Shown here: piece by piece, positions 2,714 to 25,402 of the stretch
Layout: each line of letters begins with the position of its first letter
How positions within the stretch are numbered: the first letter of the stretch is position 1
Assembly (NCBI GenBank): GCA_964469945.1
Contig: CAYYBU010000001.1
Span: 1 to 25,929, forward strand
DNA from: an uncultured Planctomycetaceae bacterium
GTDB taxonomy: Bacteria; Planctomycetota; Planctomycetia; Pirellulales; Thermoguttaceae
Length of the DNA stretch: 25,929 bases
Direction: 5' to 3'
Notes under the pieces: generated by a model
What the model was told of the DNA's origin: nothing
Seen by the model: only the letters and a program-made list of their open reading frames with translations
The model's database searches: none
Position numbers and translations under genes: made by a program

Positions 2714-2795
2714 GGTATCCGCAGAGCCTGATTCGACAGGTATCTCCAAGAGCCCGCCGCTGGAACTGATTTCCGGCGGCGGGCTCTTTTTGTTT
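2714..2795 (+). promoter_or_regulatory. Structured leader RNA motif, copy 1 (candidate attenuator/antitermination site)
   Basis: GGTAT-ccgc-AGAGCCTG-attcga-CAGGTATCT-ccaa-GAGCCC...ctgat loop...GGGCTC-TTTTTTGTT; the same fixed elements in the same order recur at 11116-11202. Confidence 0.7.
2748..2795 (+). terminator. Intrinsic terminator upstream of the first cluster gene
   Basis: 18-bp stem aagagcccgccgctggaa/ttccggcggcgggctctt (one G-U), 5-nt loop ctgat, followed by a U-tract. Confidence 0.85.
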
Positions 2796-2848
2796 GGCAC
2801 CCAACCAAGGCGCTCGCGTTGCGCCTCGAAGCAACCGGAGAATTCACA

Positions 2849-3262
2849 ATGCTTGCACCCTTCCTGGTGGACGAAATCCGCCGCCTGCTGGCGGAAGACA
2901 AACTGAGCTATCGCAAGATCGCCCAGCGCCTGGGCGTCAACCGCGCTACGGTCGGGGCCATCGCGGCGGGGCGACGGCCCGATTACGAGCGGCTTCGCCA
3001 TGTCCGCCACGACGATCCGCTGGAACCTACCGGACCGCCCGCGCGCTGCCCGCAGTGCGGTGGCATGGTCTATCTTCCCTGCCGTTTGTGCCACCTGCGG
3101 AGCACGATGCCGCGGCCGGCCGAGCCACGACGCCGCGACAGGGTTGGAGAAATCGTGCAATTGCAGTTGAAGGAGGAACACCGCCTGCGCTACGAAGAGG
3201 TTCGTGCCCAACGGCAACGCGCTGAAATGGAAGCTTGCCTGGAACACATGAGACTGTCCTAG
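2849..3262 (+). CDS. HTH plus Zn-ribbon protein, putative transcriptional regulator, 137 aa
   Basis: ATG 2849 with GGAG SD; HTH-like LSYRKIAQRLGVNRATVGAIA; CPQCG...CRLC four-Cys motif. Confidence 0.8.
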   Translation: MLAPFLVDEIRRLLAEDKLSYRKIAQRLGVNRATVGAIAAGRRPDYERLRHVRHDDPLEPTGPPARCPQCGGMVYLPCRLCHLRSTMPRPAEPRRRDRVGEIVQLQLKEEHRLRYEEVRAQRQRAEMEACLEHMRLS

Positions 3263-3281
3263 CCGTTCACAAGGAGAAACC

Positions 3282-3369
3282 TTGTCGGGTGGGTCGAGCG
3301 GAGCGAATTCCACCCGAACGCGGGCAACTAATCCATGGTGGGGCTCGCTCCGCTCGACCCACCCGACAA
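3282..3369. repeat. REP-like palindrome, family C variant (GTCGGGTGGGTCGAGCGGAGCGA)
   Basis: ttgtcgggtgggtcgagcggagcga...tcgctccgctcgacccacccgacaa inverted arms; related to 9175-9258. Confidence 0.85.
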
Positions 3370-3393
3370 ATCACTTCTACAGGAGACTGAGCC

Positions 3394-5007
3394 ATGCAAC
3401 GCTCGAAACTCGGTGTGTCATGTCTGGAAGTCATGGTGGCGATGGTCGCCGGCGCCGCCTTCGCGCTGGGGACGGCCGGCACCTGCTGGGCATCGCTTTC
3501 GGACTGTATCGATGCCACCTGCCGCATCACGACGGCCGACGGCAGTTGCGGCACCGGTTGCGTGTTCGAGATCGATCAGGGATCGGTCTACGTGCTCACG
3601 GCCGCGCACGTGGTGGGCAACGATCCGGCGGTGCAGTGCGAGTTCTGGCGGCAAGGACACCAATCGGCGCCGCTGGCCGGCCAGGTGCTCAGCCGCTCGG
3701 AAGAGGCCGACGCGGCCATTGTCGCCGTGCCGGAAACGGCCCTGGGCGGGCTGCTGCCCAGCGTCATTCCGCTGGCCCCCCGCGACACGGTGATTCGCCC
3801 GGGAGATACGCTCACTTCGGTCGGCTGCGCCAACGGCGCCTGGTCGACCAGTTGGAAGGGTCACGCCCTGGAGGTCGAGGACGGCGACCTGCACTTCCTT
3901 CCCACGCCGGCCAATGGGCGGAGCGGCTCGGCCGTTTTCGACGCCGAGGGACAACGGATCGTGGGCGTGCTGCGGGCCCGCACCGGCGACGGCGCGGAAG
4001 GCATCGCCACGCCGATTCAAACGATCTATCGTGCCTTTGACGTGGCCCCGCAGTCGAGCAAGACCGCCGTGCCGCGGAGTGCTATGTACGCGGCCAAAGC
4101 ACTGGCAGAGCCAGTGGCACGCGACGAATGGGCAGCGCGCCTCGATATGGTGCCGGTACAGTGCGGCCCCGGCGGATGTTGCCCGCAACAGCAACAGCAG
4201 CAGCCGCAGCCTTGGCAAAACCACTTGCTGCCGTACCGTTCCCGCCACGACACGCCGAAGCCGAGCAGCCCGTGGCCGAGCCTGCCGCCGGTGGTGGTCA
4301 AGCCGGCGGTGGACATCTCGCCGCTGGACGAGAAGCTGGGCCGCATCGCCGCCATGCTGGAAGACATGAAGAAAAGCGATGTGGCCGGCGCGGCGCAGCG
4401 CGCGGCCGCCACGGCGACGCCCGGGACCGAGCCGCCCAAAGCGGCGGTCGACGAACCGGCCCGCAAGGCCGCCGAAACGGCCCTTGGCCAAGTGGCCGAG
4501 CTGCGCAACGAGTCGGAGCGGAACCTGCACGACGTGAAAACGGATGTCGCCAAGGCCAACGAAGCCGTGGGTGGATTGACCACGGCCGTGGAGCGAATCA
4601 AGGAGTCGATGGAGGAGAACGGCACCCTCTCGCAGCGCTTCCATGCCCGCGTCGACAAGGTCAAAGCCGAACTGGAAGAAAAGCTGGGACACGAGGCTTC
4701 CAACCACGAAGTGCGCATCGCCTACCTCAAGGACCTGATCCAGGACAAACTGGGCGACGGCGGTGCGATGAAGATGCTCCTCATCCCGGCCGTGCTGGTG
4801 CTGGTCGTGTGGCTGATCGCCCGCGACGTGAAGAACAAAGTCGAATTGGGCACGCCGCTGGCGGTGGAGCGGCTCGTCACGCTGGTCGAGAGCAAGTTCG
4901 GCGCGCTGCACGATCGGGTCGATGCGTTGAAGGACCGCCTGCAAAGCACCACCGCCGCGCCGGCGGCGCCGGCGGCGCCCGCCGCCGCGCCCAAGACCGG
5001 GCCGTAA
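3394..5007 (+). CDS. Trypsin-like (S1) serine protease with N-terminal export signal and C-terminal coiled coil plus TM helix, 537 aa
   Basis: AGGAG SD; catalytic motifs VLTAAHV (His), ADAAIV (Asp), NGRSGSAVF (Ser); Gln/Pro linker; TM LLIPAVLVLVVWLIA. Confidence 0.85.
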   Translation: MQRSKLGVSCLEVMVAMVAGAAFALGTAGTCWASLSDCIDATCRITTADGSCGTGCVFEIDQGSVYVLTAAHVVGNDPAVQCEFWRQGHQSAPLAGQVLSRSEEADAAIVAVPETALGGLLPSVIPLAPRDTVIRPGDTLTSVGCANGAWSTSWKGHALEVEDGDLHFLPTPANGRSGSAVFDAEGQRIVGVLRARTGDGAEGIATPIQTIYRAFDVAPQSSKTAVPRSAMYAAKALAEPVARDEWAARLDMVPVQCGPGGCCPQQQQQQPQPWQNHLLPYRSRHDTPKPSSPWPSLPPVVVKPAVDISPLDEKLGRIAAMLEDMKKSDVAGAAQRAAATATPGTEPPKAAVDEPARKAAETALGQVAELRNESERNLHDVKTDVAKANEAVGGLTTAVERIKESMEENGTLSQRFHARVDKVKAELEEKLGHEASNHEVRIAYLKDLIQDKLGDGGAMKMLLIPAVLVLVVWLIARDVKNKVELGTPLAVERLVTLVESKFGALHDRVDALKDRLQSTTAAPAAPAAPAAAPKTGP

Positions 5008-5012
5008 GCATC

Positions 5013-5068
5013 GTGTCCGGCACACGCCGTGTGCCGTTGGCCGGCCGCACACGGAGTGTGCCGGATAC
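5013..5068. repeat. Palindromic repeat family B (GTATCCGGCACACTCCGTGTGCCG ... CGGCACACGGAGTGTGCCGGATAC)
   Basis: Inverted arms with a few mismatches; further copies at 5773-5828, 17829-17883 and a half copy at 10831-10848. Confidence 0.85.
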
Positions 5069-5192
5069 TTTGACGCTCGACCATTTCCTCTTCCCCGGCG
5101 GCCGTGCTGGAAAACAGGGTGCATTGCCCGAGGGCTCCCCCGCTCCAGCCGCGCCGCCGGAAGAGGAATTTTTTCCACAAGGAGAATAGGCG

Positions 5193-5759
5193 ATGCAAAT
5201 TCGCGATCGCGTGAAGGAATTGCGGCGCGTGAAAGCCGGCCTGTTGCGGCCGCATCCGCAAAACTGGCGCATGCACCCGCAGGCGCAACAAGACGCCCTC
5301 CGCGGCGTGCTGGCGGAAATCGGCTATGCCGGCGCGCTGCTGGCCCGCGAATTGTCCGATGGCAGCCTGCAACTGCTCGACGGCCACTTGCGCGCCGAAA
5401 CGACGCCGGACATGGAAGTGCCGGTGCTGGTGGTGGACCTCGACGAGCGGGAGGCGGCCAAGCTGCTGGCCGTTCACGACCCCTTGGCGGCCATGGCGGA
5501 AGCCAACGAGCAGATGCTGGCGGAATTGCTCGCCGGCGTGGAGACCGACAGCGACGCGGTGCAAAGTCTTTTGGACCAGATGCTCGCCGACGCGGAAACG
5601 CTGCCCGAGGAATCGCCGGCCGAGGCGACGACGCCGGCGGAAATCGAGGTGCCGGAGTGTTTCCAGGTCGTCGTCGAGTGCGAGGACGAATCGCAGCAGC
5701 AAGAGGTTTACGAGCGAATGTGCCAAGAGGGGTTCAAGTGCCGTTTGTTGACGCTGTGA
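5193..5759 (+). CDS. ParB/Srx N-terminal domain protein, phage-type, 188 aa
   Basis: LRPHPQNWRMH...IGYAGALLAR...LLDGHLR is the ParB-N signature; acidic linker and short C-terminal VVVECEDE domain; AAGGAG SD. Confidence 0.85.
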   Translation: MQIRDRVKELRRVKAGLLRPHPQNWRMHPQAQQDALRGVLAEIGYAGALLARELSDGSLQLLDGHLRAETTPDMEVPVLVVDLDEREAAKLLAVHDPLAAMAEANEQMLAELLAGVETDSDAVQSLLDQMLADAETLPEESPAEATTPAEIEVPECFQVVVECEDESQQQEVYERMCQEGFKCRLLTL

Positions 5760-5772
5760 GAAGGCTTTGAAC

Positions 5773-5828
5773 GTATCCGGCACACTCCGTGTGCCGTTGG
5801 CCGGCGGCACACGGAGTGTGCCGGATAC
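5773..5828. repeat. Palindromic repeat family B
   Basis: gtatccggcacactccgtgtgccg / cggcacacggagtgtgccggatac perfect inverted arms. Confidence 0.9.
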
Positions 5829-5858
5829 ATGGAGAGGCGAGATCAAGGAGAACGTGCC

Positions 5859-7034
5859 ATGCCTTTGCTCGACGTGACCGTGGAATGCCCGGTCTTCGAT
5901 TCCTTCCGCGTCCAGCAAGTGGCGGGAATGTTCGACGTGCCGCTGTCGCAACGGGCGACGCAACGCTTCCGCGTCGAACTGCCGGCCGATCTCCGCGGCG
6001 CGGATTGGCGCGTGGGGCTGATCGTGGGGCCGTCCGGCAGCGGCAAGAGCACGATCGCCCGCAACATGTTCGGACCCAGCGTCTATCGTCCCAAGGAGTG
6101 GGCCGGCGACCGCGCCGTGATCGACGGCTTGGGGGAACATCCCATCAAGGACATCACCGGACTGTTTACGGCCGTCGGCTTCAGTTCGCCGCCCAGTTGG
6201 GTGAAGCCGTACCACGTGTTGAGCAACGGCGAGCAGTTCCGTTGCGATCTGGCCCGGGCGCTGGCCCAATGCGGCCGCGGGGAGACCGCTGAGGATCGCC
6301 GCGAAGGGGACAGTCCCAGTTTCGGCGTCGCCGCCGGAGACGCGGAACGAAACTCGGGACAGTCCCCACTGGTGGTCTTTGACGAATTCACCAGCGTCGT
6401 GGACCGCAACGTGGCCCGGGTGGTTTCGGCGGCGACCGCCAAGGCGATTCGCGGCGGCCGCATTGCCGGGCGTTTCGTGGCCGTCACCTGCCATTACGAC
6501 GTCACCGACTGGCTGCAACCCGATTGGGTCATCGACATGGCCACCGCCACTTTTACCCGGAGGTGTCTTCCACGACCGCCGATCGAGTTGGAAGTCTTTC
6601 GCAGCCGGCGCAGTGCGTGGTCGCTGTTTGCGCGCCATCACTATTTGAGCGGCGCGCTGAGCACGGCGGCACGCTGCTTCCTGGCCCTGTGGGGCGAGCG
6701 GCCGGTGGCCTTCTGCGCCACCGTGTCGCTGATCGGGCGCAAGAAGCGTTGGCGTCTGAGCCGCCTGGTCACGCTGCCCGACTACCAGGGCATCGGCATC
6801 GGCATGGCGGTGGCCGAGGCCGTGGCCGACCTGCACTTGCAGGAAGGCCACCGCTTGAACGTGACGGCCAGCCACCCGGCGCTGTTGGCGCACTGCCGCC
6901 GCTCGCCGCGCTGGCGGGCGGTGCAAGTGCGCAAGACCGGTTCGCAGATGGGGACGAACTTCGTGAAGAACTACCGCAGCTCGGCGGGCCGGGCCGTGGT
7001 CTCCTTCGAGTACCTGGGACACAAGGAGTCATAA
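5859..7034 (+). CDS. ABC-type ATPase fused to a GNAT acetyltransferase, 391 aa
   Basis: ATG 5859 with AAGGAG SD (preferred over 5829, which abuts the repeat); Walker A GPSGSGKS, signature LSNGEQFR, Walker B LVVFDEF; GNAT motif [15 protein letters not shown]. Confidence 0.9.
6304..6367. repeat. GGGACAGTCCC-type palindromic repeat inserted in frame in the ATPase gene
   Basis: aaggggacagtcccagtttc...gaaactcgggacagtcccc; encodes [22 protein letters not shown] between the ABC signature and Walker B. Confidence 0.75.
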
Positions 7035-7037
7035 GGC

Positions 7038-7559
7038 GTGGGCAAACGCGGCCGGCCTCCGGTACTCGACGAAGCGAAGCGGCGGGAGATCCTGGCGATC
7101 ATCACCGTGGGGTGCAGCCGCACCATGGCCGCCACCTACGTCGGCTGCGCGGTCAGCACGATCCAGAACACGGCCGAGCGCGATGCCATCTTCGCGGAAA
7201 AGCTGCGGCAAGCGACCTACAACACCGAGGTCGGCCTGCTGAAGAGCATTCGCAACGCGGCCCAAAAAGAGGAGTATTGGCGGGCGGCCGCCTGGGCGCT
7301 GGAACGCCGCTTCCCCGAGCGTTACGCCCGCCGCGGCGCCCACGTCATGACGCTCGACCAGATCGCGCTGCTGCTGGGCCAGCTCAGCGACATCGTGGCC
7401 GCGGAAGTGCCCGACCGCTGCCGCAAGCGGGTGCTCAAGCGGCTGGAAGACTTGACTCGGGGGCTGGGCGATTCCGCGGCGAACAACCGCCAGCGATTGG
7501 AAGACCTGACCGACGAGCTAAGCAATTTGCCAGGAAAGGCCGCCGATGAGCCGCAATGA
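7038..7559 (+). CDS. Putative terminase small subunit (HTH), 173 aa
   Basis: GKRGRPP start, HTH-like segment, WRAAAWALERRFPERY motif typical of phage TerS-like proteins; overlaps terL start. Confidence 0.7.
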   Translation: MGKRGRPPVLDEAKRREILAIITVGCSRTMAATYVGCAVSTIQNTAERDAIFAEKLRQATYNTEVGLLKSIRNAAQKEEYWRAAAWALERRFPERYARRGAHVMTLDQIALLLGQLSDIVAAEVPDRCRKRVLKRLEDLTRGLGDSAANNRQRLEDLTDELSNLPGKAADEPQ

Positions 7560-9171
7560 CCCCTTCCCGGCGGCCTGCTTGTTGGCGCCGGAGCAACTGG
7601 CGCCCATGATTCGATTCTTTCGCGATGATCTGGCGCGAAAACATGGCCAAGCGCGGCGCATGCAACATGCCGGCGACCGCAGCGGCGGACTGCTGGCCTG
7701 GGGACGCCAGTATCTGCCGGCCCATTTCACCCGCCCGCCGTCGAACTTGCACCGCTGGCTGGCCGAGGAGTTGGATGCCATGCGGACGCAGCGCGGCTCG
7801 CGGCTCAACGTGCTGGGGCCGCGCGGCACGGCCAAATCGACCGTGGGCACGCTGGCCTTCCCCTTGCGCGCGGCCCTGGAGTGCTGGGAACCTTACGTGT
7901 GGATCGTCTCCGACACGCGGCACCAGGCCTGCGCCCACTTGGAGAACCTCAAGGCCGAGCTGTTGGACAACCGGCTGCTGGCCGAAGCCTATCCGCAGGC
8001 GACCGGCCGCGGCCTGGTGTGGCGATCGGGCTCGATCGTGCTCCGCAACGGCGTGGCCATCGAGGCCTTCGGCACCGGGCAGCGCATCCGCGGCCGCCGC
8101 CGCGGCGCGCATCGCCCCACGCTCATCATCTGCGACGACCTGCAGAACGACGGCCACATCCAGTCGGCCGTGCAGCGCGAACACTCGCGAAGCTGGTTCC
8201 ACGGCACGCTCATGAAGGCCGGCACGGCGCGGACCAACGTGGTCAACCTGGCCACGGCGCTGCACCGCGAGGCGCTGGCGATGGAGCTGCACCGGCGGCC
8301 CGGCTGGACATCGCGGCTGTTCAAGGCCATTCAGCGCTGGCCGGAGAACATATCGCTGTGGCAGGAGTGGGAAGCGCTCTTCACGGACGTGCAGAACCCG
8401 CGCTACCGCCGCACGGCCCGCGCCTTCTACGAACAGCACCAGCCGGCCATGGACGCGGGGGCCATCGTGCTGTGGCCGGAGGAGGAAGACCTGTACGCGC
8501 TGATGTGCATGCGCGCCGAGGGGGGCCGCACGGCATTCGAGCGGGAGAAACAGAATTCGCCCATCAACCCGGAACTGTGCGAATGGCCGGAGTCGTATTT
8601 CCACGAGGGGATTTGGTTCGATGCCTGGCCGGAGCATTTGCAGGTCAAGACGCTGGCGTTGGATCCGAGCAAAGGGGGCGATGCCCGGCGGGGCGACTAC
8701 TCGGCGCTGGTCATGCTGGGCGTGGATCGGCAGGGGATCGTCTACGTGGAGGCCGACTTGGCGCGGCGACCGACGCCGCAGATGGTGGCCGACGGCGTGG
8801 AGTGCTGCCGGCGTTTTCACCCCGACGTGTTCGGCATCGAGGCCAATCAGTTCCAGGATCTGCTGGCCGGCGAGTTCGAGGGGGAATTCCGCCGCCAGGG
8901 CGTGTTGAACGCACGGCCTTGGCCGCTGGACAACCACACCAACAAACAAGTGCGCATCCGCCGCCTGGGGCCCTATCTTTCCTCGCGGCGATTGCGATTC
9001 AAAAACGGCAGTGCGGGGACGCGGCTGCTGGTCGAACAACTGCAACAGTTCCCCATCGGCGACCACGACGACGGCCCGGACGCGGCGGAAATGGCCCTGC
9101 GCCTGGCGGCCGACCTGTTGGAAGGGCGCCGCAGCCGCGACGGCCTGGGCCATCGTCTGCCGCTGGGATGA
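7546..9171 (+). CDS. terL: Terminase large subunit, 541 aa
   Basis: Walker A PRGTAKST, Walker B IICDDLQ, RNase H-like nuclease LALDPS...DYSAL...IEANQFQ...HDDGPDA. Confidence 0.95.
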   Translation: MSRNDPFPAACLLAPEQLAPMIRFFRDDLARKHGQARRMQHAGDRSGGLLAWGRQYLPAHFTRPPSNLHRWLAEELDAMRTQRGSRLNVLGPRGTAKSTVGTLAFPLRAALECWEPYVWIVSDTRHQACAHLENLKAELLDNRLLAEAYPQATGRGLVWRSGSIVLRNGVAIEAFGTGQRIRGRRRGAHRPTLIICDDLQNDGHIQSAVQREHSRSWFHGTLMKAGTARTNVVNLATALHREALAMELHRRPGWTSRLFKAIQRWPENISLWQEWEALFTDVQNPRYRRTARAFYEQHQPAMDAGAIVLWPEEEDLYALMCMRAEGGRTAFEREKQNSPINPELCEWPESYFHEGIWFDAWPEHLQVKTLALDPSKGGDARRGDYSALVMLGVDRQGIVYVEADLARRPTPQMVADGVECCRRFHPDVFGIEANQFQDLLAGEFEGEFRRQGVLNARPWPLDNHTNKQVRIRRLGPYLSSRRLRFKNGSAGTRLLVEQLQQFPIGDHDDGPDAAEMALRLAADLLEGRRSRDGLGHRLPLG

Positions 9172-9174
9172 GAA

Positions 9175-9258
9175 GTAGGGTGGGACGAGCGCAGCGAAGG
9201 CCCACCAGGATTTGCGAGAGGTCGATGGTGGGCCGTCGCTTCGCTCGTCCCACCCTAC
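9175..9258. repeat. REP-like GTAG palindrome, family C
   Basis: gtagggtgggacgagcgcagcgaaggcccacc...ggtgggccgtcgcttcgctcgtcccaccctac. Confidence 0.9.
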
Positions 9259-9285
9259 GCAACACCAACACCAAGGAGCCGATTC

Positions 9286-10677
9286 ATGGAACCGCAGCCA
9301 CATTCTCATGACACCACCGCCGCGCCGCCCGATCCGCGCTTGGCCGGCTTGCAGCGGCACTTGTCCGAGGCCTTCGACGACCTGTGGGACAGCTTCGTCG
9401 ATCGCGACGAGGCGCTGTACGACGTCGATGGAATGCCTTGGGCCCGCCTCGACAACGACACCATGCCGGGCAAGACGGCCGGCGTGGTCTTCACCCAGGT
9501 GCAACTGGCCGAGATCCGCGGCGAGTGCCGCGCCCTGGCCGTGAGCAACCCGTTTGCCATCAACGGCCACGAGAACCGCGTCAGCTACATTGTCGGCAGC
9601 GGCCACAACTACCAGGCGTCGGCCCGCCGCGGCGGCGCCGCCGGCGACGACCTGCCGGCCGAGGTCCAGACCGTGCTGGACGAGTTCGTCCGCGTCAACA
9701 AGTGGCACCAGCGGCAGCAGGAAATCGTCCGCCGCAAGGACCGCGACGGCGAATGCTTCCTGCGCCTGTTCGCCGCGCCGGACGGCGCCACGCGGGTGCG
9801 GTTCGTCGAGCCGGGCCAGGTGGCCGCGCCCCCCGAGCGCGCCGGCGACCCGACGGCGGCCTTCGGCATTCAAACCGCCGCCAACGACGTGGAGAATGTC
9901 CGCGGCTACTGGATCGACGGCCGGCTGGTCGGCGCCGAAGACGTCCAGCACCGCAAGGAAAACGTGGACGCCAACGTGCGCCGCGGGCTGCCGCTGTTCT
10001 TTCCCGTCCGGCAAAACCTCCGTCGCGCCGAAAAGCTCTTGCGCAACATGAGCGCCGTGGCCGAGATCCAGTCGGCGATCGCCTTGATCCGCAAGCATCA
10101 GGCGACCAGCGGCGCCGCCTTGGACCAGTTCGTGCAAGGCCAGGCCGATTTCAACGTGACCAGCCCCGTGACCGCGCGGACCAGCTACTTCCGCCGTTAT
10201 GCGCCGGGCACGATCCTGGACACCATGGCGGGCACGGATTACGAGTTCCCGGCGTCGGCCATCAATGCGGCCAGCTACGTGGCCGTGTTGCAGGCCGAGC
10301 TGCGCGCCATTGCCGCCCGGCTGGTGATGCCGGAGTTCATGCTCAGCAGCGACGCCAGCAACGCCAACTACAGCTCGACGATGGTGGCCGAGGGACCGGC
10401 GGTGAAGATGTTCGACCGCTTGCAGCACGACATGATCGAGGACGATCTGGAATTGCTCTGGCGCGTGGTGGGCCACGCGGTAGCGGTGGGCCGGCTGCCG
10501 GCCGAGGCGCTCGCGGCGGTGGACATTCGCGCCGTGCCGCCGACACTGGCGGTGCGCGATCGGCTGCGCGACGCCCAGGCCGACCAGATCCTGCTCCGCA
10601 ACGGCGCCATGTCGCCGGCGACGATGGCCATGCGCCACGGGCTGGAGCCGGCCGATGAGCAGCAGGCGGGCTTATAA
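9286..10677 (+). CDS. Phage portal protein, lambda-like family, 463 aa
   Basis: Position after terL; RDGECFLR, VRRGLP, LSSDASNANYSS motifs; AAGGAG SD. Confidence 0.9.
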   Translation: MEPQPHSHDTTAAPPDPRLAGLQRHLSEAFDDLWDSFVDRDEALYDVDGMPWARLDNDTMPGKTAGVVFTQVQLAEIRGECRALAVSNPFAINGHENRVSYIVGSGHNYQASARRGGAAGDDLPAEVQTVLDEFVRVNKWHQRQQEIVRRKDRDGECFLRLFAAPDGATRVRFVEPGQVAAPPERAGDPTAAFGIQTAANDVENVRGYWIDGRLVGAEDVQHRKENVDANVRRGLPLFFPVRQNLRRAEKLLRNMSAVAEIQSAIALIRKHQATSGAALDQFVQGQADFNVTSPVTARTSYFRRYAPGTILDTMAGTDYEFPASAINAASYVAVLQAELRAIAARLVMPEFMLSSDASNANYSSTMVAEGPAVKMFDRLQHDMIEDDLELLWRVVGHAVAVGRLPAEALAAVDIRAVPPTLAVRDRLRDAQADQILLRNGAMSPATMAMRHGLEPADEQQAGL

Positions 10678-10740
10678 CCGCGACCGGGAAGGACTGGCAG
10701 AGCCAGTGGCGCCCGGCCGGTACGATTCCGAAGGAATCGT

Positions 10741-10848
10741 TGTAGGGAACGCCCTCCGTGGCGTTCCGGACGTACCGGTACAAACGGAACGCCACGGAGG
10801 GCGTTCCCTACAGGAGTATGCCGGCGGCGGACGGAGTGTGCCGGATAC
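10741..10848. repeat. Family A palindrome (10741-10812) plus half copy of family B (10831-10848)
   Basis: Perfect 28-bp inverted arms, then acggagtgtgccggatac. Confidence 0.9.
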
Positions 10849-10878
10849 GTCATGGGAAAAATGGCTCAAAAAGAAAGC

Positions 10879-10907
10879 TTGAAAACCGACCGGCCTTGAG
10901 GTATCTT
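10879..10907 (+). promoter_or_regulatory. Putative internal sigma70 promoter TTGAAA-N17-TATCTT
   Basis: TTGAAA 10879-10884, TATCTT 10902-10907; same CTTGAAAAC context as the promoter at 2670; ATG follows 8 nt after the -10 box. Confidence 0.55.
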
Positions 10908-10915
10908 TTTTCTCG

Positions 10916-11098
10916 ATGATCACGCACGGCACAACACCTGCAAACGCGAAGAAAGTGGCGCAGCTCCACGCGGCGCTGGCCGAGCTGTTGGCCGACACGC
11001 TGCGGCGCGGCTTCTTCGGCACGGCCGCCGTGGAACTGAACATTCAGGACGGGACCATCCAGCATATCCGCCGCATGGTGGATCGGATCGAGAAGTAA
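10916..11098 (+). CDS. Small basic 60-aa protein, DUF2292/YezD-like
   Basis: LRRGFFGTAAVELNIQDGTIQHIRR resembles the (F/Y)G-V-x-(I/L)-xx-DG-xxxx-I pattern; no SD, probably leaderless. Confidence 0.65.
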   Translation: MITHGTTPANAKKVAQLHAALAELLADTLRRGFFGTAAVELNIQDGTIQHIRRMVDRIEK

Positions 11099-11115
11099 CG
11101 AGACGAAACTGAATT

Positions 11116-11202
11116 GGTATTGGCGAGAGCCTGTCGCGCGCCGACAGGTATCTGGCCGAGCCCACCGCGAGCCCCGATGGCTCCAGGTGGGCTTTTTTTG
11201 TT
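11116..11202 (+). promoter_or_regulatory. Structured leader RNA motif, copy 2
   Basis: GGTAT-tggcg-AGAGCCTG-tcgcgcgccga-CAGGTATCT-ggcc-GAGCCC...ccgat loop...GGGCT-TTTTTTGTT. Confidence 0.7.
11158..11202 (+). terminator. Intrinsic terminator directly upstream of the capsid genes
   Basis: agcccacc/ggtgggct outer stem, gagcc/ggctc inner stem, ccgat loop, T7 tract. Confidence 0.8.
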
Positions 11203-11242: not shown

Positions 11243-12187
11243 ATGACAGAAACGCTCCAGGAATTTTTCGATTCGCGCGGCGTGGCCGTGCGCGTGGACC
11301 GCCCGGCGGGCGTGATCCGGGGAGTGAAAATCCTCGGCCTCCGTTCGCGCAACGGCCGCAGCTATCTGCCCGAGGCGCTCGTGCAGGCCGCCGCGCTGTA
11401 TGAAGACGCCAAGGTCAACGTGAACCATCCCAAGGGCAACCCGGGCGGACCGCGCGACTACCAGGACCGCATCGGCGTGATTCGCAACGTGGCGGTGCAA
11501 GGCGAGGGCTTGTTCGCCGATTTTCATTTCAACCCCAAGCACGGCCTGGCGGAGCAGCTTCTCTGGGACGCCGAACATGCCCCGGAGAACGTCGGCTTCT
11601 CCCACAATGTCGAAGCCCGCACGGTCCGCCGCGGCCAGGACGTGGTCGTGGAGGCCATCACGCGGGTGCAGAGCGTGGACTTGGTGGCCGATCCGGCCAC
11701 GACGCGCGGGCTGTTCGAGGGGCAAGCCGGCCGGGAAACGCCCGCCGCCGGCGCCCGTGCGGCCCTCTCCCTCGATGACCTGAAACGCGACTACCCCGAA
11801 CTGGTCGAGGCGCTGTGCCAGGAACAGGCCGCCGAGTTGCGGCGGTTGGAAGGCGAACTGACGCGGCTGACGGAAGCGGCGTCGCTCTGCCGCAAGCAGG
11901 AAACCGCGCGGAAGCTGCTGCGCGAATTCCACTTGCCGGAGTGCGATGCGACCGACCCGCGGGCCGCGGCCATCACCAGCCCGCGGTTCATGCACACCTT
12001 GTTGGCGGCGGCCGACGAACCGGCCATGCGCGAACTGGTCGAAGAGCGGGCCCGGCTGGTCCGCACGCTGGGCGGCGCCGAGGCGGCGCAGGCCGCGGCG
12101 TGCGGCAGGCCGCTCTCGCGCGATCAACACCTCGTCGACGGCGCGGGGCCGTGCGACATGCGAAGCTTCGTGGCAGCGATTACCTGA
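11243..12187 (+). CDS. Prohead protease with C-terminal scaffold region, 314 aa
   Basis: ATG 11243 after AAAGG SD (ORF-track start 11114 lies in the leader); VNVNHP (His), VGFSH (Ser), VQSVDLVADPAT as in HK97/U35-like maturation proteases; helical C-terminus. Confidence 0.8.
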   Translation: MTETLQEFFDSRGVAVRVDRPAGVIRGVKILGLRSRNGRSYLPEALVQAAALYEDAKVNVNHPKGNPGGPRDYQDRIGVIRNVAVQGEGLFADFHFNPKHGLAEQLLWDAEHAPENVGFSHNVEARTVRRGQDVVVEAITRVQSVDLVADPATTRGLFEGQAGRETPAAGARAALSLDDLKRDYPELVEALCQEQAAELRRLEGELTRLTEAASLCRKQETARKLLREFHLPECDATDPRAAAITSPRFMHTLLAAADEPAMRELVEERARLVRTLGGAEAAQAAACGRPLSRDQHLVDGAGPCDMRSFVAAIT

Positions 12188-20859: not shown

Positions 20860-20913
20860 CGTAGGTCAGGCTGTGCCTGACACCCCAGACTGTCAGGCAC
20901 AGCCTGACCTACG
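20860..20913. repeat. REP-like GTAG palindrome (CGTAGGTCAGGCTGTGCCTGACA)
   Basis: Perfect 23-bp inverted arms 20860-20882 and 20891-20913. Confidence 0.9.
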
Positions 20914-22167: not shown

Positions 22168-23196
22168 ATGAGAGTTTTCGTCATCGGCTATCCCTCGGCG
22201 ATCGGTGGGGCCAACACCGAACTGTGGCACACGGTGAAACTGTGGCGCCGCTTCGGCTGCGACGTCGCGCTGCTGCCCACCTGGCAGGCTGACCCCGCCT
22301 GGCAGTTGCGCCTGGAGAATCTGGGTTGTCGCACCATCGAGAGCCAGCCCGATGATCTGGATCGTGTGCCCGGGCTTGCCGGCGGCATCGTCGTGGTGTT
22401 TTGCAATACGCGATTTCTGGCGGCCGCCGAGCGTTTTCGCCGGCTCGGCTGCCGCGTGGTCTGGCTGGGTTGCATGAATTGGCTTTTTCCCGAGGAACGG
22501 CTGCATTATCGGCAATTCGGCCCCTTCGCCCGGCACGTCTTCCAGAGCCGTTACCAGCACGACGAACTGACACCGCAACTACGCCCTTATGGATATGAAG
22601 ACGGTCGGGGACGAATCATTCGCGGCGCCTGGGATGCCGACGAACTGGCTTTCGCGCCTCGCCCCCATGCGGCGGGCGAAGTTTTCGTCGTCGGGCGAGT
22701 CAGCCGCGCCGATCCCGATAAGTTCTCGCCCACGCTGTGGAAAACCTACGGACGGATTCCGCATCCGATCCGGGCTCGCGTGCTGGGCTGGCAACAGGAC
22801 ATACAGGCGCGGCTGGGACCGCCGCCACCGTGGGCCGAGTGCTTTCCCGCCGGGGCACAGACGCCCGCGCAACTGCTCCACTCGCTCCATGCCCTGGTGC
22901 AGGCCAACGCCGCGGCAGTGGAAAACTGGCCGCGGGTCGGCCTGGAAGCCATGGCCGCGGGCGTGCCCCTGGTGGTCGATGCCAAAGGCGGCTGGCAGGA
23001 GATGATCCGCCACGGCGAGACCGGTTACCTCTGCACGACCGACGACCAGTTCGCCTACTATGCCGCACGCTTGGCCTATGACGAAGAGCACCGCCGGCAA
23101 CTCATCCGCCAGGCCCGGCACGCGCTGCTCCACGAATTGGCCGAGCCCCGGGCGATCTGGTCGCAGTGGCAGGCGTTGTTTGAGGAATTGTCATGA
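22168..23196 (+). CDS. Glycosyltransferase, GT-B fold (GT4-like), 342 aa
   Basis: MRVFVIG...GGANT start; ENWPRVGLEAMAAGVPLVV...GGWQEMIRHGETGYL signature. Confidence 0.9.
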   Translation: MRVFVIGYPSAIGGANTELWHTVKLWRRFGCDVALLPTWQADPAWQLRLENLGCRTIESQPDDLDRVPGLAGGIVVVFCNTRFLAAAERFRRLGCRVVWLGCMNWLFPEERLHYRQFGPFARHVFQSRYQHDELTPQLRPYGYEDGRGRIIRGAWDADELAFAPRPHAAGEVFVVGRVSRADPDKFSPTLWKTYGRIPHPIRARVLGWQQDIQARLGPPPPWAECFPAGAQTPAQLLHSLHALVQANAAAVENWPRVGLEAMAAGVPLVVDAKGGWQEMIRHGETGYLCTTDDQFAYYAARLAYDEEHRRQLIRQARHALLHELAEPRAIWSQWQALFEELS

Positions 23197-23912
23197 AAAT
23201 CGCCGCCGTGTGCGTCACTTACCTGCGTCCCAGGCAATTGGGCTGGATGATCCAATGCTTTCTTCGCCAGGATTATCCGGCCGCGAAACGGGAGTTGGTC
23301 ATTCTGGACGATGCGGGCCAATACGACGACGCCTCGGGAGCGGGCTGGCGGTTGATTTCCACGGCGACGCGGTTTCCCACCCTGGGGGAAAAACGCAATG
23401 CGGCGGCCGCCCTAGTGGCCGCCGACACCGACGCCCTGGCCGTCTGGGACGACGACGATTTGTATCTGCCCTGGGCGCTGTCGGCCTCGGCCGCTGCCTT
23501 GAAACGTGCCGCCTGGTCGCGTCCCTCCCTGGTCCTCCACCGGCAAGACGACGGCCGGCTACAACAACATCACACCGGCGGACTGTTTCACGGCGGTTGG
23601 GCCTATCGGCGCGACCTGTTCCGCCGCCTCGGCGGCTATCCGGCCATGGACAACGGCGAAGACCAGGCCCTGGCCGCGCGGTTCCGCGGCGCCCGCATTG
23701 AGCCGGCCGACCCCTGCACGCTTGAATGGCCGCCCTTTTACATCTACTGTTGGAGCGGCCACGGCTGGCACCTGTCGGGCATGGGCGGCGACGGCTATCG
23801 GCGGTTGGGCGCCTTCCGCGGAGAGAAAACGCCGCTGGAAATCGTCGATCCGCCGGGCATCGATCTGTGCCATCCGCCGATCGTGCCCGGCGTACATCCG
23901 AGGATATTTTGA
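23193..23912 (+). CDS. Glycosyltransferase, GT-A fold (GT2-like), 239 aa
   Basis: CVTYLRP, FLRQDYP, ELVILDD, LGEKRN, WDDDD (DxD), GEDQAL; ATGA coupling to the previous gene. Confidence 0.9.
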   Translation: MKIAAVCVTYLRPRQLGWMIQCFLRQDYPAAKRELVILDDAGQYDDASGAGWRLISTATRFPTLGEKRNAAAALVAADTDALAVWDDDDLYLPWALSASAAALKRAAWSRPSLVLHRQDDGRLQQHHTGGLFHGGWAYRRDLFRRLGGYPAMDNGEDQALAARFRGARIEPADPCTLEWPPFYIYCWSGHGWHLSGMGGDGYRRLGAFRGEKTPLEIVDPPGIDLCHPPIVPGVHPRIF

Positions 23913-23929
23913 AGGAAAACGGTCAAACC

Positions 23930-24775
23930 ATGAAGCCGATTCGCTTGATTCGCGCGGTTTCCGCCCAAACCGGTCGCGGCCCGGGCAACGGCCAGTATGC
24001 CTTGCAAAAGGCCTTGCGGGAATTCGGGCCGCCCTGGCTCCGCATCGGCGGCATCTTGCAGAAGAAGGAAATTCCCTGGTTCTGGTGCTGGGAAGACGGC
24101 GAGGCGGCCGCACTGTGCGCACGAACCGGACAACCCTTCGTCGCCGGCCCCAATATCCTCTTTGCCCAGAGCCGCCAGCCCTGCCACAACGAGGCCGAGC
24201 GGGCGATCTGCGCGGCGGCCAGTTGCCGACTGCTCTTCACCGAATCGCACTGGTACCGGCGGCTCATCGAGCAGTATCGCGGTCCGGCCAACCGCGCGCC
24301 GCTGGTGGTGTGGCCCTATCCGATCGATCCGCATCCCGGCGGCCCGCTGCCCGCCGAGCACGACTTGTTGATCTACGAGAAATCGGGCGTCGCTGCGGAG
24401 ACCGTGGCACGGTTGCAGCAAGCCTGGCCGCGGTCGGTCGTCATTCACTATGGGCGTTATCGGCGCGACGATCTGATCCAGGCCGCGCGGCGGTCGCGAT
24501 GTTGCGTGTACCTGTCCGATGATGATCGCGGTCCGTTGGCCTTGGCGGAAATTCTTTTGTCCGGCTGTCCGGCAGTGGGAATACCGCGCGGCGCGCCGTT
24601 CATTCGGCCCGGCCGCACGGGCGTGTTGCTGGACCGACTCGACGGGCAGGCGTGCGTGGAGGCGGTGGCCCAGTGCCGGCTTTTGGATCGCAAGGCCGTC
24701 GGCGCGCTGGCGGCCAGACAATTCGATGCCCGGCGGATTGTGGGGATCATCGTCGCGGCGCTGGGGGAGGTGTAG
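23930..24775 (+). CDS. Glycosyltransferase, GT-B-like, 281 aa
   Basis: ATG 23930 after AAGGA; DDRGPLALAEILLSGCPAVG...GRTGVLL is a degenerate GT4-type C-terminal motif. Confidence 0.7.
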   Translation: MKPIRLIRAVSAQTGRGPGNGQYALQKALREFGPPWLRIGGILQKKEIPWFWCWEDGEAAALCARTGQPFVAGPNILFAQSRQPCHNEAERAICAAASCRLLFTESHWYRRLIEQYRGPANRAPLVVWPYPIDPHPGGPLPAEHDLLIYEKSGVAAETVARLQQAWPRSVVIHYGRYRRDDLIQAARRSRCCVYLSDDDRGPLALAEILLSGCPAVGIPRGAPFIRPGRTGVLLDRLDGQACVEAVAQCRLLDRKAVGALAARQFDARRIVGIIVAALGEV

Positions 24776-24796: not shown

Positions 24797-24897
24797 GGCC
24801 GAAAAATAACTTCCCGATTTGCCCGTACTCGTCACGCTCCGCCGTGAGGAATTGCATCACGACGGAGCGTGACGAGTAGGGAAGTTATTCTTCGGCC
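24797..24897. repeat. Long composite palindrome at the 3' end of the cluster
   Basis: ggccgaa/ttcggcc, aataacttccc/gggaagttatt and 22-bp tactcgtcacgctccgccgtga/tcacgacggagcgtgacgagta nested arms. Confidence 0.85.
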
Positions 24898-25020: not shown

Positions 25021-25314
25021 CCGTACTCCGGTCCCGACGCTTTCCTATACAGCGGTGGGGTCATGCACGACCTAAACAACTTGATACCTTCCAATGCTGG
25101 ATGGACACTTACTTACGCTTTTGACATCAACGACTCGGGGCAAATCGTTGGTATGGGGATAAATCCCCACGGTCAGTAGGACGCATTTCTCCTCAACCCC
25201 GTCCCTGAACCTTCCACTCTTGTCCTATTGGCTGTCGGGGCTGGTGGTCTGATTGGCTACCGTTGGCGAAGGAAGCGGGCGAATGGTTGCCGAGAGCTAC
25301 GCGCCACGTTTTAG
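25021..25314 (+). pseudogene. 3' remnant of a HAF-repeat / PEP-CTERM exported protein gene
   Basis: Frame from 25021: PYSGPDAFLYSGGVMHDLNNLIPSNAGWTLTYAFDINDSGQIVGMGINPHGQ*DAFLLNPVPEPSTLVLLAVGAGGLIGYRWRRKR; in-frame TAG at 25177-25179; upstream stop at 24970 and no 5' part. Confidence 0.85.
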
Positions 25315-25402
25315 GACGCGATCAAAGGGGTCGGGACGCGATCAAAGGGGTCGGAAGTCGTTTCACAAGCGCGATCAAAGGGGTCGGAAGTCGTTTCACA
25401 AG
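25314..25402. repeat. Tandem direct repeats of a GGGGTCGGAAGTCGTTT-type element
   Basis: 20-bp unit twice (25314-25353), 33-bp unit twice (25337-25402); inverted partner aaacgactcccgacc at 25506-25520. Confidence 0.8.

Follow-up and report, generated by a model that had tools for sequence, protein, structure and literature searches.

A conserved leader RNA element with an intrinsic terminator precedes both gene blocks of a phage-derived cluster in Planctomycetota

We analysed a 25,929-nucleotide (nt) stretch of DNA from an uncultured Planctomycetaceae bacterium (assembly GCA_964469945.1, contig CAYYBU010000001.1, positions 1 to 25,929; referred to below as the window). It carries a phage-derived gene cluster with two copies of an RNA element of ~85 nt, each composed of a GGUAUC box, a hairpin (hairpin P1), a 4-nt linker and an intrinsic terminator (T). 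Copy 1 lies before the first cluster gene, and copy 2 lies between s60, an open reading frame (ORF) of 60 aa, and the head genes. The element is an RNA family new to Rfam, and its mechanism is of an already known kind. We see an even chance that each copy works as a terminator/antiterminator switch that is OFF by default, in which a helix between the box and the terminator base (P0), together with hairpin P1, would have to be stabilised for read-through. Default termination, the switch and the factor that operates it are what we infer from the sequence.

Gene regulation in Planctomycetota is poorly charted. The element would be a defined and widely conserved cis-regulatory RNA for this phylum that is absent from Rfam. 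As it would gate both operons of the cluster, it offers a handle on when and how the cluster is switched on.

Two copies of the element in the window

A preliminary description made from the sequence alone had listed a common order of boxes and stems in the two stretches, and the sequences do read in this way. In copy 1, box a is GGGTATC (RNA GGGUAUC, 2713–2719, + strand, as are all features given here). It is the 5' strand of the proposed helix P0, with GAGCCC at 2750–2755 as its partner. The spacer CGC separates it from hairpin P1 (2723–2745), which was obtained in single-sequence and alignment folds as AGAGCCUG, loop AUUCGA and CAGGUAUCU, with a bulged A at 2742. In the DNA, the 5' arm AGAGCCTG (2723–2730) is followed by the loop ATTCGA, the 3' arm CAGGTATCT (2737–2745) and CCAA. 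The terminator scan placed T1 at 2748–2795, with an 18-bp stem, the loop CUGAU and the tract U5GU3. The GC-rich stem has GAGCCC (2750–2755) at its base, which is common to P0, and continues through the loop CTGAT to GGGCTC and TTTTTGTTT, ending at 2795.

Copy 2 is built in the same order. Box a is GGTATT (RNA GGUAUU, 11116–11121; sequence reading and covariance model), and after the spacer GGCG comes hairpin P1 (11126–11153; AGAGCCUGUCG, CGCGC, CGACAGGUAUCU), which is seen in the folds and in covariation. Its DNA arms are AGAGCCTGTCG (11126–11136) and CGACAGGTATCT (11142–11153) on either side of the loop CGCGC, with GGCC following. Terminator T2 (11158–11202; GAGCCCACC…GGUGGGCU, U7GUU) was identified by folding, the terminator scan and covariation. 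Its base GAGCCC (11158–11163) is again common to P0, the stem has 9+5 bp, and the loop CCGAT leads to GGGCT and TTTTTTTGTT, which ends at 11202. T1 and T2 are both GC-rich stem-loops with an immediate U-tract on the transcribed strand, which is the definition of an intrinsic terminator. In general form, hairpin P1 of the element is GAGCC…GGUAUC with a bulged A.

The predicted folds consist of hairpin P1 plus T in both copies, at -50.8 kcal/mol for copy 1 (z -6.1 against shuffles) and -51.2 kcal/mol for copy 2 (z -5.0). The heptamer GGTATCT occurs four times in the window, where 0.71 occurrences are expected. With a covariance model trained on 17 homologous copies, copy 1 scored 85.8 bits and copy 2 scored 82.7 bits (E ~1e-24), and the + strand of the window gave no third match. 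The preliminary description had named no fitting riboswitch class and had suggested a comparison with Rfam. No family was matched: Rfam 15 gave no match at the gathering score for either copy, and the best score in a permissive search was 26.8 bits against a threshold of 52, covering the terminator hairpin alone.

Distribution in related genomes and metagenomes

Searches based on the portal protein gave 24 loci, some in IMG/VR and others in Thermoguttaceae/Planctomycetia genomes, and the motif was visible at both positions. In those relatives the covariance model matched the two corresponding positions and nothing else in the loci. A metagenome scan with the family of the first cluster gene, which encodes a helix-turn-helix (HTH)/Zn-ribbon protein, yielded 80 loci, and in 46 of them the element immediately precedes the HTH gene. 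The corresponding scan with the s60 family added 14 loci, and in 12 of these the element lies 20–140 nt downstream of s60. Merging the sets left 73 distinct copies, all from loci of related Planctomycetota (Thermoguttaceae/Pirellulales-like) and without exception 5' of the HTH/Zn-ribbon gene or 3' of the 60-aa ORF.

Scans of IMG/VR with exact patterns found the hairpin core in 72 stretches and the box plus core in 27. Nearly all of these are chance matches that lack the architecture, and the model fits contigs of the cluster family only. Within the sequence searched, the element thus occurs in this cluster family alone and is not a genome-wide repeat, in agreement with the original assumption. 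On an unrelated 60-kb IMG/VR contig (L034, 1190–1290, - strand) we noticed GGTAT, AGAGCCTG…CAGGTATCT and a terminator 14 nt further on, with a score of 24 bits. This hairpin-terminator could be a distant cousin of the element or a chance match.

Covariation of hairpin P1 and the terminator

Covariation in hairpin P1 and T was computed on 57 distinct copies. Of all cells, 92.9% are paired, and both-side changes occur in 19 of the 26 pairs (8 of 10 in hairpin P1, 11 of 16 in T), a result not reached by any of 500 shuffles. When the partners were slid as a control, pairing fell to about 45%. Hairpin P1 covaries down to its conserved base, where A19-U39 is replaced by C-G in seven copies of one clade. 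Its apical loop tolerates insertions of 60–100 nt (L109, L114, L159), and the spacers on both sides of it are kept at 4–6 nt. These compensatory changes, found across 57–73 distinct copies from related loci, bear out the proposal that an RNA structure is under selection.

Two details of the preliminary description have to be revised. The terminator loop C(T/C)GAT, which had been taken for a kept feature, is not conserved in relatives. The "second GGTATCT box" is not a separate box; it is the 3' arm of hairpin P1 and changes together with its partner. A 4-bp hairpin GCGG/CCGC that can be drawn around the copy 1 box is likewise not conserved in relatives.

Single loci deviate from the common form. 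At position 1 of L081 (1580–1642) hairpin P1 is missing, as if it had been deleted between two GGTATC repeats, and L161 (547–675) has two terminators in series.

At the base of T, the conserved GAG mostly lies opposite U (G.U in 40 copies, G-C in 13). Pairing within T alone therefore does not account for the conservation of GAG.

The proposed helix P0 and the terminator base

Box a is nearly invariant in the 73 copies, and it stays GGUAUC where the 5' arm of hairpin P1 changes, which argues that it is not kept for pairing with that arm. With a bulged A, GGUAUC is complementary to GAGCCC at the base of the T 5' arm. The resulting helix P0 encloses hairpin P1, and P0 and T are mutually exclusive, since GAGCCC is common to both.

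On the 73 copies, P0 is paired in 92.9% of cells compared with 91.2% in shuffles, and none of 1000 shuffles reached the observed value. Pair 11-47 is UA in 61 copies, UG in six and CG in six, and C.A does not occur; pair 12-46 is U-A in L120 and L187. On alignment A4 we counted 5 both-side cells where 0.7 were expected (0/500 shuffles). In a tree of the HTH proteins, the copies with C-G are interspersed with copies that have U-A (L127) and U.G (L147), which indicates at least two P0 events. When the nascent RNA was folded only as far as the 5' arm of T, P0 plus hairpin P1 resulted in 38 of 56 copies. In the full-length RNA, the form with hairpin P1 and T is favoured by 20–30 kcal/mol. The element thus has two exclusive helices, each with comparative support, as generally seen in attenuators; for P0 this support is modest.

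Other pairings were considered for the same segments. The rival pairings a:b, a':b' and a:a' showed no excess over shuffles. Tandem mini-hairpins (GGUAUC-N4-6-GAGCC, twice) and a pairing of the box with the second box are compatible with the sequence, but they show no covariation and are broken where hairpin P1 covaries. ANTAR proteins bind pairs of tandem hairpins whose hexaloops have A1 and G4. Here, the tandem pairings a:b and a':b' do not covary and are broken in 7–12 copies, and their loops have 4–6 nt and are not conserved. An outward extension of P0 (pairs 5-52 and 4-53) was at or near expectation.

A possible switch and its likeness to known antiterminators

The switch would operate as follows. 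Transcription would start ~7 nt before the box at promoter P1, or at the start of s60 at promoter P2. As the RNA emerges, the GGUAUC box would pair with GAGCC(C) ~30–45 nt downstream and form P0, a helix of 5–6 bp with a bulged A. The base of hairpin P1 repeats these sequences with their order reversed (GAGCC/GGUAUC, again with a bulged A), and P0 and hairpin P1 together would make one extended, pseudo-symmetric hairpin. Once the 3' arm of T has been synthesised, the far more stable T would displace P0 and polymerase would halt at the U-tract. In this OFF state, the genes from the HTH regulator to the portal would be silent behind T1, and the head and tail genes behind T2. Read-through would require a factor that locks P0 and hairpin P1.

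This scheme has a precedent in the ribonucleic antiterminator (RAT) bound by LicT, SacY and BglG. RAT is an imperfect, pseudo-symmetric leader hairpin whose 3' end overlaps the 5' base of a terminator; termination is the default, and a dimeric protein clamps the hairpin. The likeness is one of architecture alone, namely a bulged hairpin with an internal loop that overlaps a terminator. The element has no sequence similarity to RAT and no link to sugars or the phosphotransferase system, and its overlap with T is only ~6 nt. No CAT or PRD match was found among the cluster proteins, and the element has no Rfam match to this group. By analogy with LicT/BglG on RAT, the factor would most likely be a sequence-specific, probably dimeric RNA-binding protein. 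A small ligand seems less likely, because the helices are conserved in sequence and the internal loop is poorly conserved in diverged copies.

Several observations weigh against such a switch. P0 is short and weak: the form with P0 and hairpin P1 reaches -18.8 and -28.5 kcal/mol in the two copies, compared with -50.8 and -49.7 kcal/mol for the terminator form. It was not predicted in 18 of the 56 nascent folds, its covariation comes from two pairs and largely from one clade, and pair 6-51 is unpaired in most second-position copies. In L179 (1680–1880) promoter P2 and s60 are present and the element is replaced by simple repeats without a terminator, so that control is dispensable there. Finally, neither the HTH/Zn-ribbon protein nor s60 resembles a known antiterminator or RNA-binding fold, and no trans-acting factor emerged from the cluster.

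Two further forms of control were rejected. Attenuation coupled to translation does not fit: copy 1 has no ORF ahead of it, and the box comes 9 to ~120 nt after the s60 stop, depending on the locus. Nor does the box contain the TAnnnT pattern seen in the local -10 elements, which speaks against a sigma-dependent pause element.

Other explanations for the element

Instead of switching locally, the element might recruit a processive antitermination factor, as nut, put or LoaP-dependent sites do. The single-stranded box and hairpin P1 would then attract the factor or act on RNA polymerase directly, and P0 would be incidental. We consider this explanation unlikely, although it has several points in its favour. 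In the N-nut system of phage lambda, boxA (CGCUCUUA-like) is combined with boxB, a 5-bp stem with a GNRA-like pentaloop, and with the arginine-rich protein N. The layout here resembles nutL and nutR: one copy comes after a promoter and the other after a small ORF, each with a box and a hairpin before a terminator, and in both systems early and late phage gene blocks would be gated. The constancy of the box where the 5' arm of hairpin P1 changes would also be expected of a recruitment site. However, the box here is GGUAUC, there is no boxA or boxB, and the loops of hairpin P1 range from 4 to ~100 nt and vary in sequence, unlike boxB or a UNCG loop. T lies 4 nt from the hairpin and has sequence in common with the helix that competes with it, as would suit local control better than processive control. 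There is also one terminator per copy, and no further strong terminators exist inside the operons that would make processivity necessary. The compensatory changes between box and GAGCCC and the conserved GAG would be left unexplained.

LoaP provides a further parallel, with two long operons that have the same kind of leader. The dfn and mln leaders contain a near-identical small hairpin plus an intrinsic terminator and need a specific factor for read-through (PMC12691694), a pattern that recurs in our two copies. LoaP itself is a NusG paralogue encoded beside its target, and its hairpin, capped by a UNCG tetraloop, forms without competing with the terminator (PMC12691694). The loops of the element are not UNCG, and competition between hairpin and terminator is what we propose here.

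Antitermination is also known from gene transfer agent (GTA) clusters (PMC11150451). With GafZ and Q-type factors, a terminator close to the operon start keeps a phage-derived structural cluster off, and the factors load at DNA elements in or beside the promoter (PMC11150451). Here the signal is instead a transcribed RNA structure, at +8 and at ~+200; copy 2 is ~200 nt from promoter P2, and its distance from the s60 stop is variable in relatives. None of the proteins that these systems use was recognised. N-type arginine-rich antiterminators had no Pfam or PHROG match among the cluster proteins, a Q-like protein was not found among them either, and no NusG/KOW match, as expected for a LoaP-type (NGN-KOW) gene next to its target, was present in the window, although the host may encode such a paralogue elsewhere. 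Processive control would thus have to do without an N-, Q-, NusG- or LoaP-like protein in the cluster.

It is also conceivable, but quite improbable in our view, that T1 and T2 are unregulated, constitutive ends. They would then define a small RNA of ~90 nt made from promoter P1 and a monocistronic s60 mRNA made from promoter P2. The box and hairpin P1 would serve stability, processing or base-pairing, and the genes downstream would be expressed by leakage only. A promoter followed by ~85 nt and a terminator does resemble a small-RNA gene, and the single-stranded 5' box could be its seed. Yet sites complementary to the box are not in excess in the window, and the essential structural genes (terminase, portal, capsid) that come straight after the terminators lack promoters of their own. 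The competition between P0 and T would also have no explanation.

A riboswitch for a metabolite or an ion has, in our estimate, little to recommend it as a whole. P0, the internal loop and hairpin P1 would be a small aptamer, and the ligand would stabilise P0 and turn the switch ON. The pbuE adenine switch and other ON riboswitches use one strand both in the helix that closes the sensor and in the 5' arm of the terminator, and the 3' strand of P0 is common to T in the same manner. Some purines of the internal loop are fairly well kept in close copies (A17 in 47 of 58, A139/A140 in ~50 of 58), and a cognate protein was not found. In diverged copies, however, the internal loop varies in sequence and length and the helices are kept, which is the opposite of what a ligand pocket would show. 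The element is very small, has no clearly conserved ligand-binding core and fits no Rfam class. It is confined to one phage-derived cluster and does not accompany metabolic or transport genes.

A signal at the DNA level, such as an operator, is very improbable: GGTATC is a direct repeat, position 1 has a constant 14 nt between -10 and box and the first gene codes for a DNA-binding protein, but the repeat spacing varies from 24 to >120 bp, the second repeat becomes GGTAGC exactly where its RNA partner changes (C19-G39), copy 2 is ~200 nt from its promoter, and the box is unlike the -10 elements of these promoters.

The HTH/Zn-ribbon protein and s60

If the terminator/antiterminator switch does operate with a protein, two small proteins of the cluster are candidates. 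The first gene behind T1 (2849–3262, + strand) encodes 137 aa with Pfam HTH matches. It consists of an HTH, a zinc ribbon CxxC-N7-CxxC, whose four Cys are invariant in the family alignment, and a conserved C-terminal helix (LxLKxEHRxRYEEVR). More than 150 homologues are present in Pirellulales-type metagenomes. Structure prediction followed by fold and sequence searches of the PDB returned generic HTH matches only. We also noticed a sub-family that is alike over the first 85 aa only. Its members lie in another context, behind an acidic 'GDFW' ORF and without the element, and they therefore carry no information on co-evolution.

The second candidate, s60 (10916–11098, + strand), lies between promoter P2 and copy 2. 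It is the most conserved protein of the cluster, with ~300 database clusters at 70–85% identity, all of them 60 aa long. The predicted fold is a helix plus a beta-hairpin, for which neither Pfam nor the PDB gave a match in sequence and predicted-fold searches. A suspected resemblance to DUF2292 was not confirmed by Pfam. The element is missing from a phage operon that encodes a distant homologue, and this makes s60 a weaker candidate for a dedicated regulator.

It is possible, but doubtful, that the element stands for a new class of antitermination switch. A small cluster protein, with s60 (translated from a leaderless mRNA that would end at T2) or the HTH/Zn-ribbon protein as candidates, would clamp P0 and hairpin P1 and time the production of phage-like (possibly GTA) particles. 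Alternatively, it would be a minimal orphan riboswitch for a stress signal.

Promoters

Both promoters are of the sigma-70 type. Promoter P1 (2670–2699, + strand) has the -35 element TTGAAA (2670–2675), an 18-nt spacer with TGn and the -10 element TAAGGT (2694–2699). Its consensus tCTTGAAAtTGGGCCA…TGnTAAGGT is kept across 37 distinct upstream regions, ending 14 nt ahead of GGTATC in every case, and suggests that it functions as a promoter. Promoter P2 (10879–10907, + strand) was found in the promoter scan, with TTGAAA at 10879–10884 and TATCTT at 10902–10907, 8 nt before the ATG of s60. In relatives the consensus is GGTGGCCAAAAAGAAnnCTTGAAAA…TATGGT, kept 7–8 nt before this ATG. With the -10 element so close, the s60 mRNA is probably leaderless and would run into copy 2.

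Behind T2, the first gene is at 11243–12187 (+ strand; 314 aa) in the head-assembly region, and the capsid and tail genes follow. In several loci the gap between element and start codon is 4–30 nt. This leaves no room for a promoter, so the downstream genes depend on read-through. T1 and T2 are the sole strong + strand terminators in the cluster. The preliminary description had placed each copy between a promoter and the genes that it would block. For both copies the element does lie between a promoter and promoter-less genes; the two are not adjacent in copy 2, whose promoter is upstream of s60.

A conserved (T)GGCCA motif occurs at both -35 elements (2669–2685 and 10862–10893), as TTGGGCCA after the -35 element in promoter P1 and as GGTGGCCAAAAAG before it in promoter P2. 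It could be an operator for a common regulator.

Gene content of the cluster and other features of the window

The window has 65% G+C and all genes are on the + strand. At 381–24775, a FlgT-like gene and mreB are followed by the phage-derived cluster. Its front part comprises the HTH/Zn-ribbon gene (2849–3262) and genes for a trypsin-like, a ParB-like and a P-loop/GNAT protein, the small and large terminase and a lambda-type portal. The rear part runs from s60 (10916–11098) through the 314-aa protein, capsid, collagen-like fibre and tail-completion protein to three glycosyltransferases. In several metagenome-assembled genomes, for example L073, L074 and L083, the whole cluster again follows these two host genes, and its proteins have diverged to about the same degree as mreB. 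No genes for an integrase, for replication or for lysis were recognised in the window. The constant site beside mreB and the lack of an integrase in the window suggest that the cluster may be a domesticated particle or a GTA-like system of Planctomycetota.

Some further features were seen outside the element. Relatives differ widely in the length of the gap that separates portal and s60 (0.1–2 kb). Intergenic gaps of the window contain long palindromes, perfect or nearly so, of the GTAGG…CCTAC type (10741–10812, 20860–20913 and 24823–24881), which look like repetitive extragenic palindromic (REP)-type elements; similar ones are present in L119 and L134. At 25042–25314 there is a fragment of a PEP-CTERM protein (…VPEPSTLVLLAVGAGGLIGYRWRRKR) with an in-frame stop at 25177–25179, probably a pseudogene. 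The adjoining non-coding stretch (25314–25402) holds two overlapping perfect tandem repeats with periods of 20 and 33 nt, two copies each. The glycosyltransferase trio (22171–24775) lies behind the tail genes and occupies the same place in a distant relative (L081, 18529–21166), and glycosylation of the particle or of the cell surface may be linked to the cluster.

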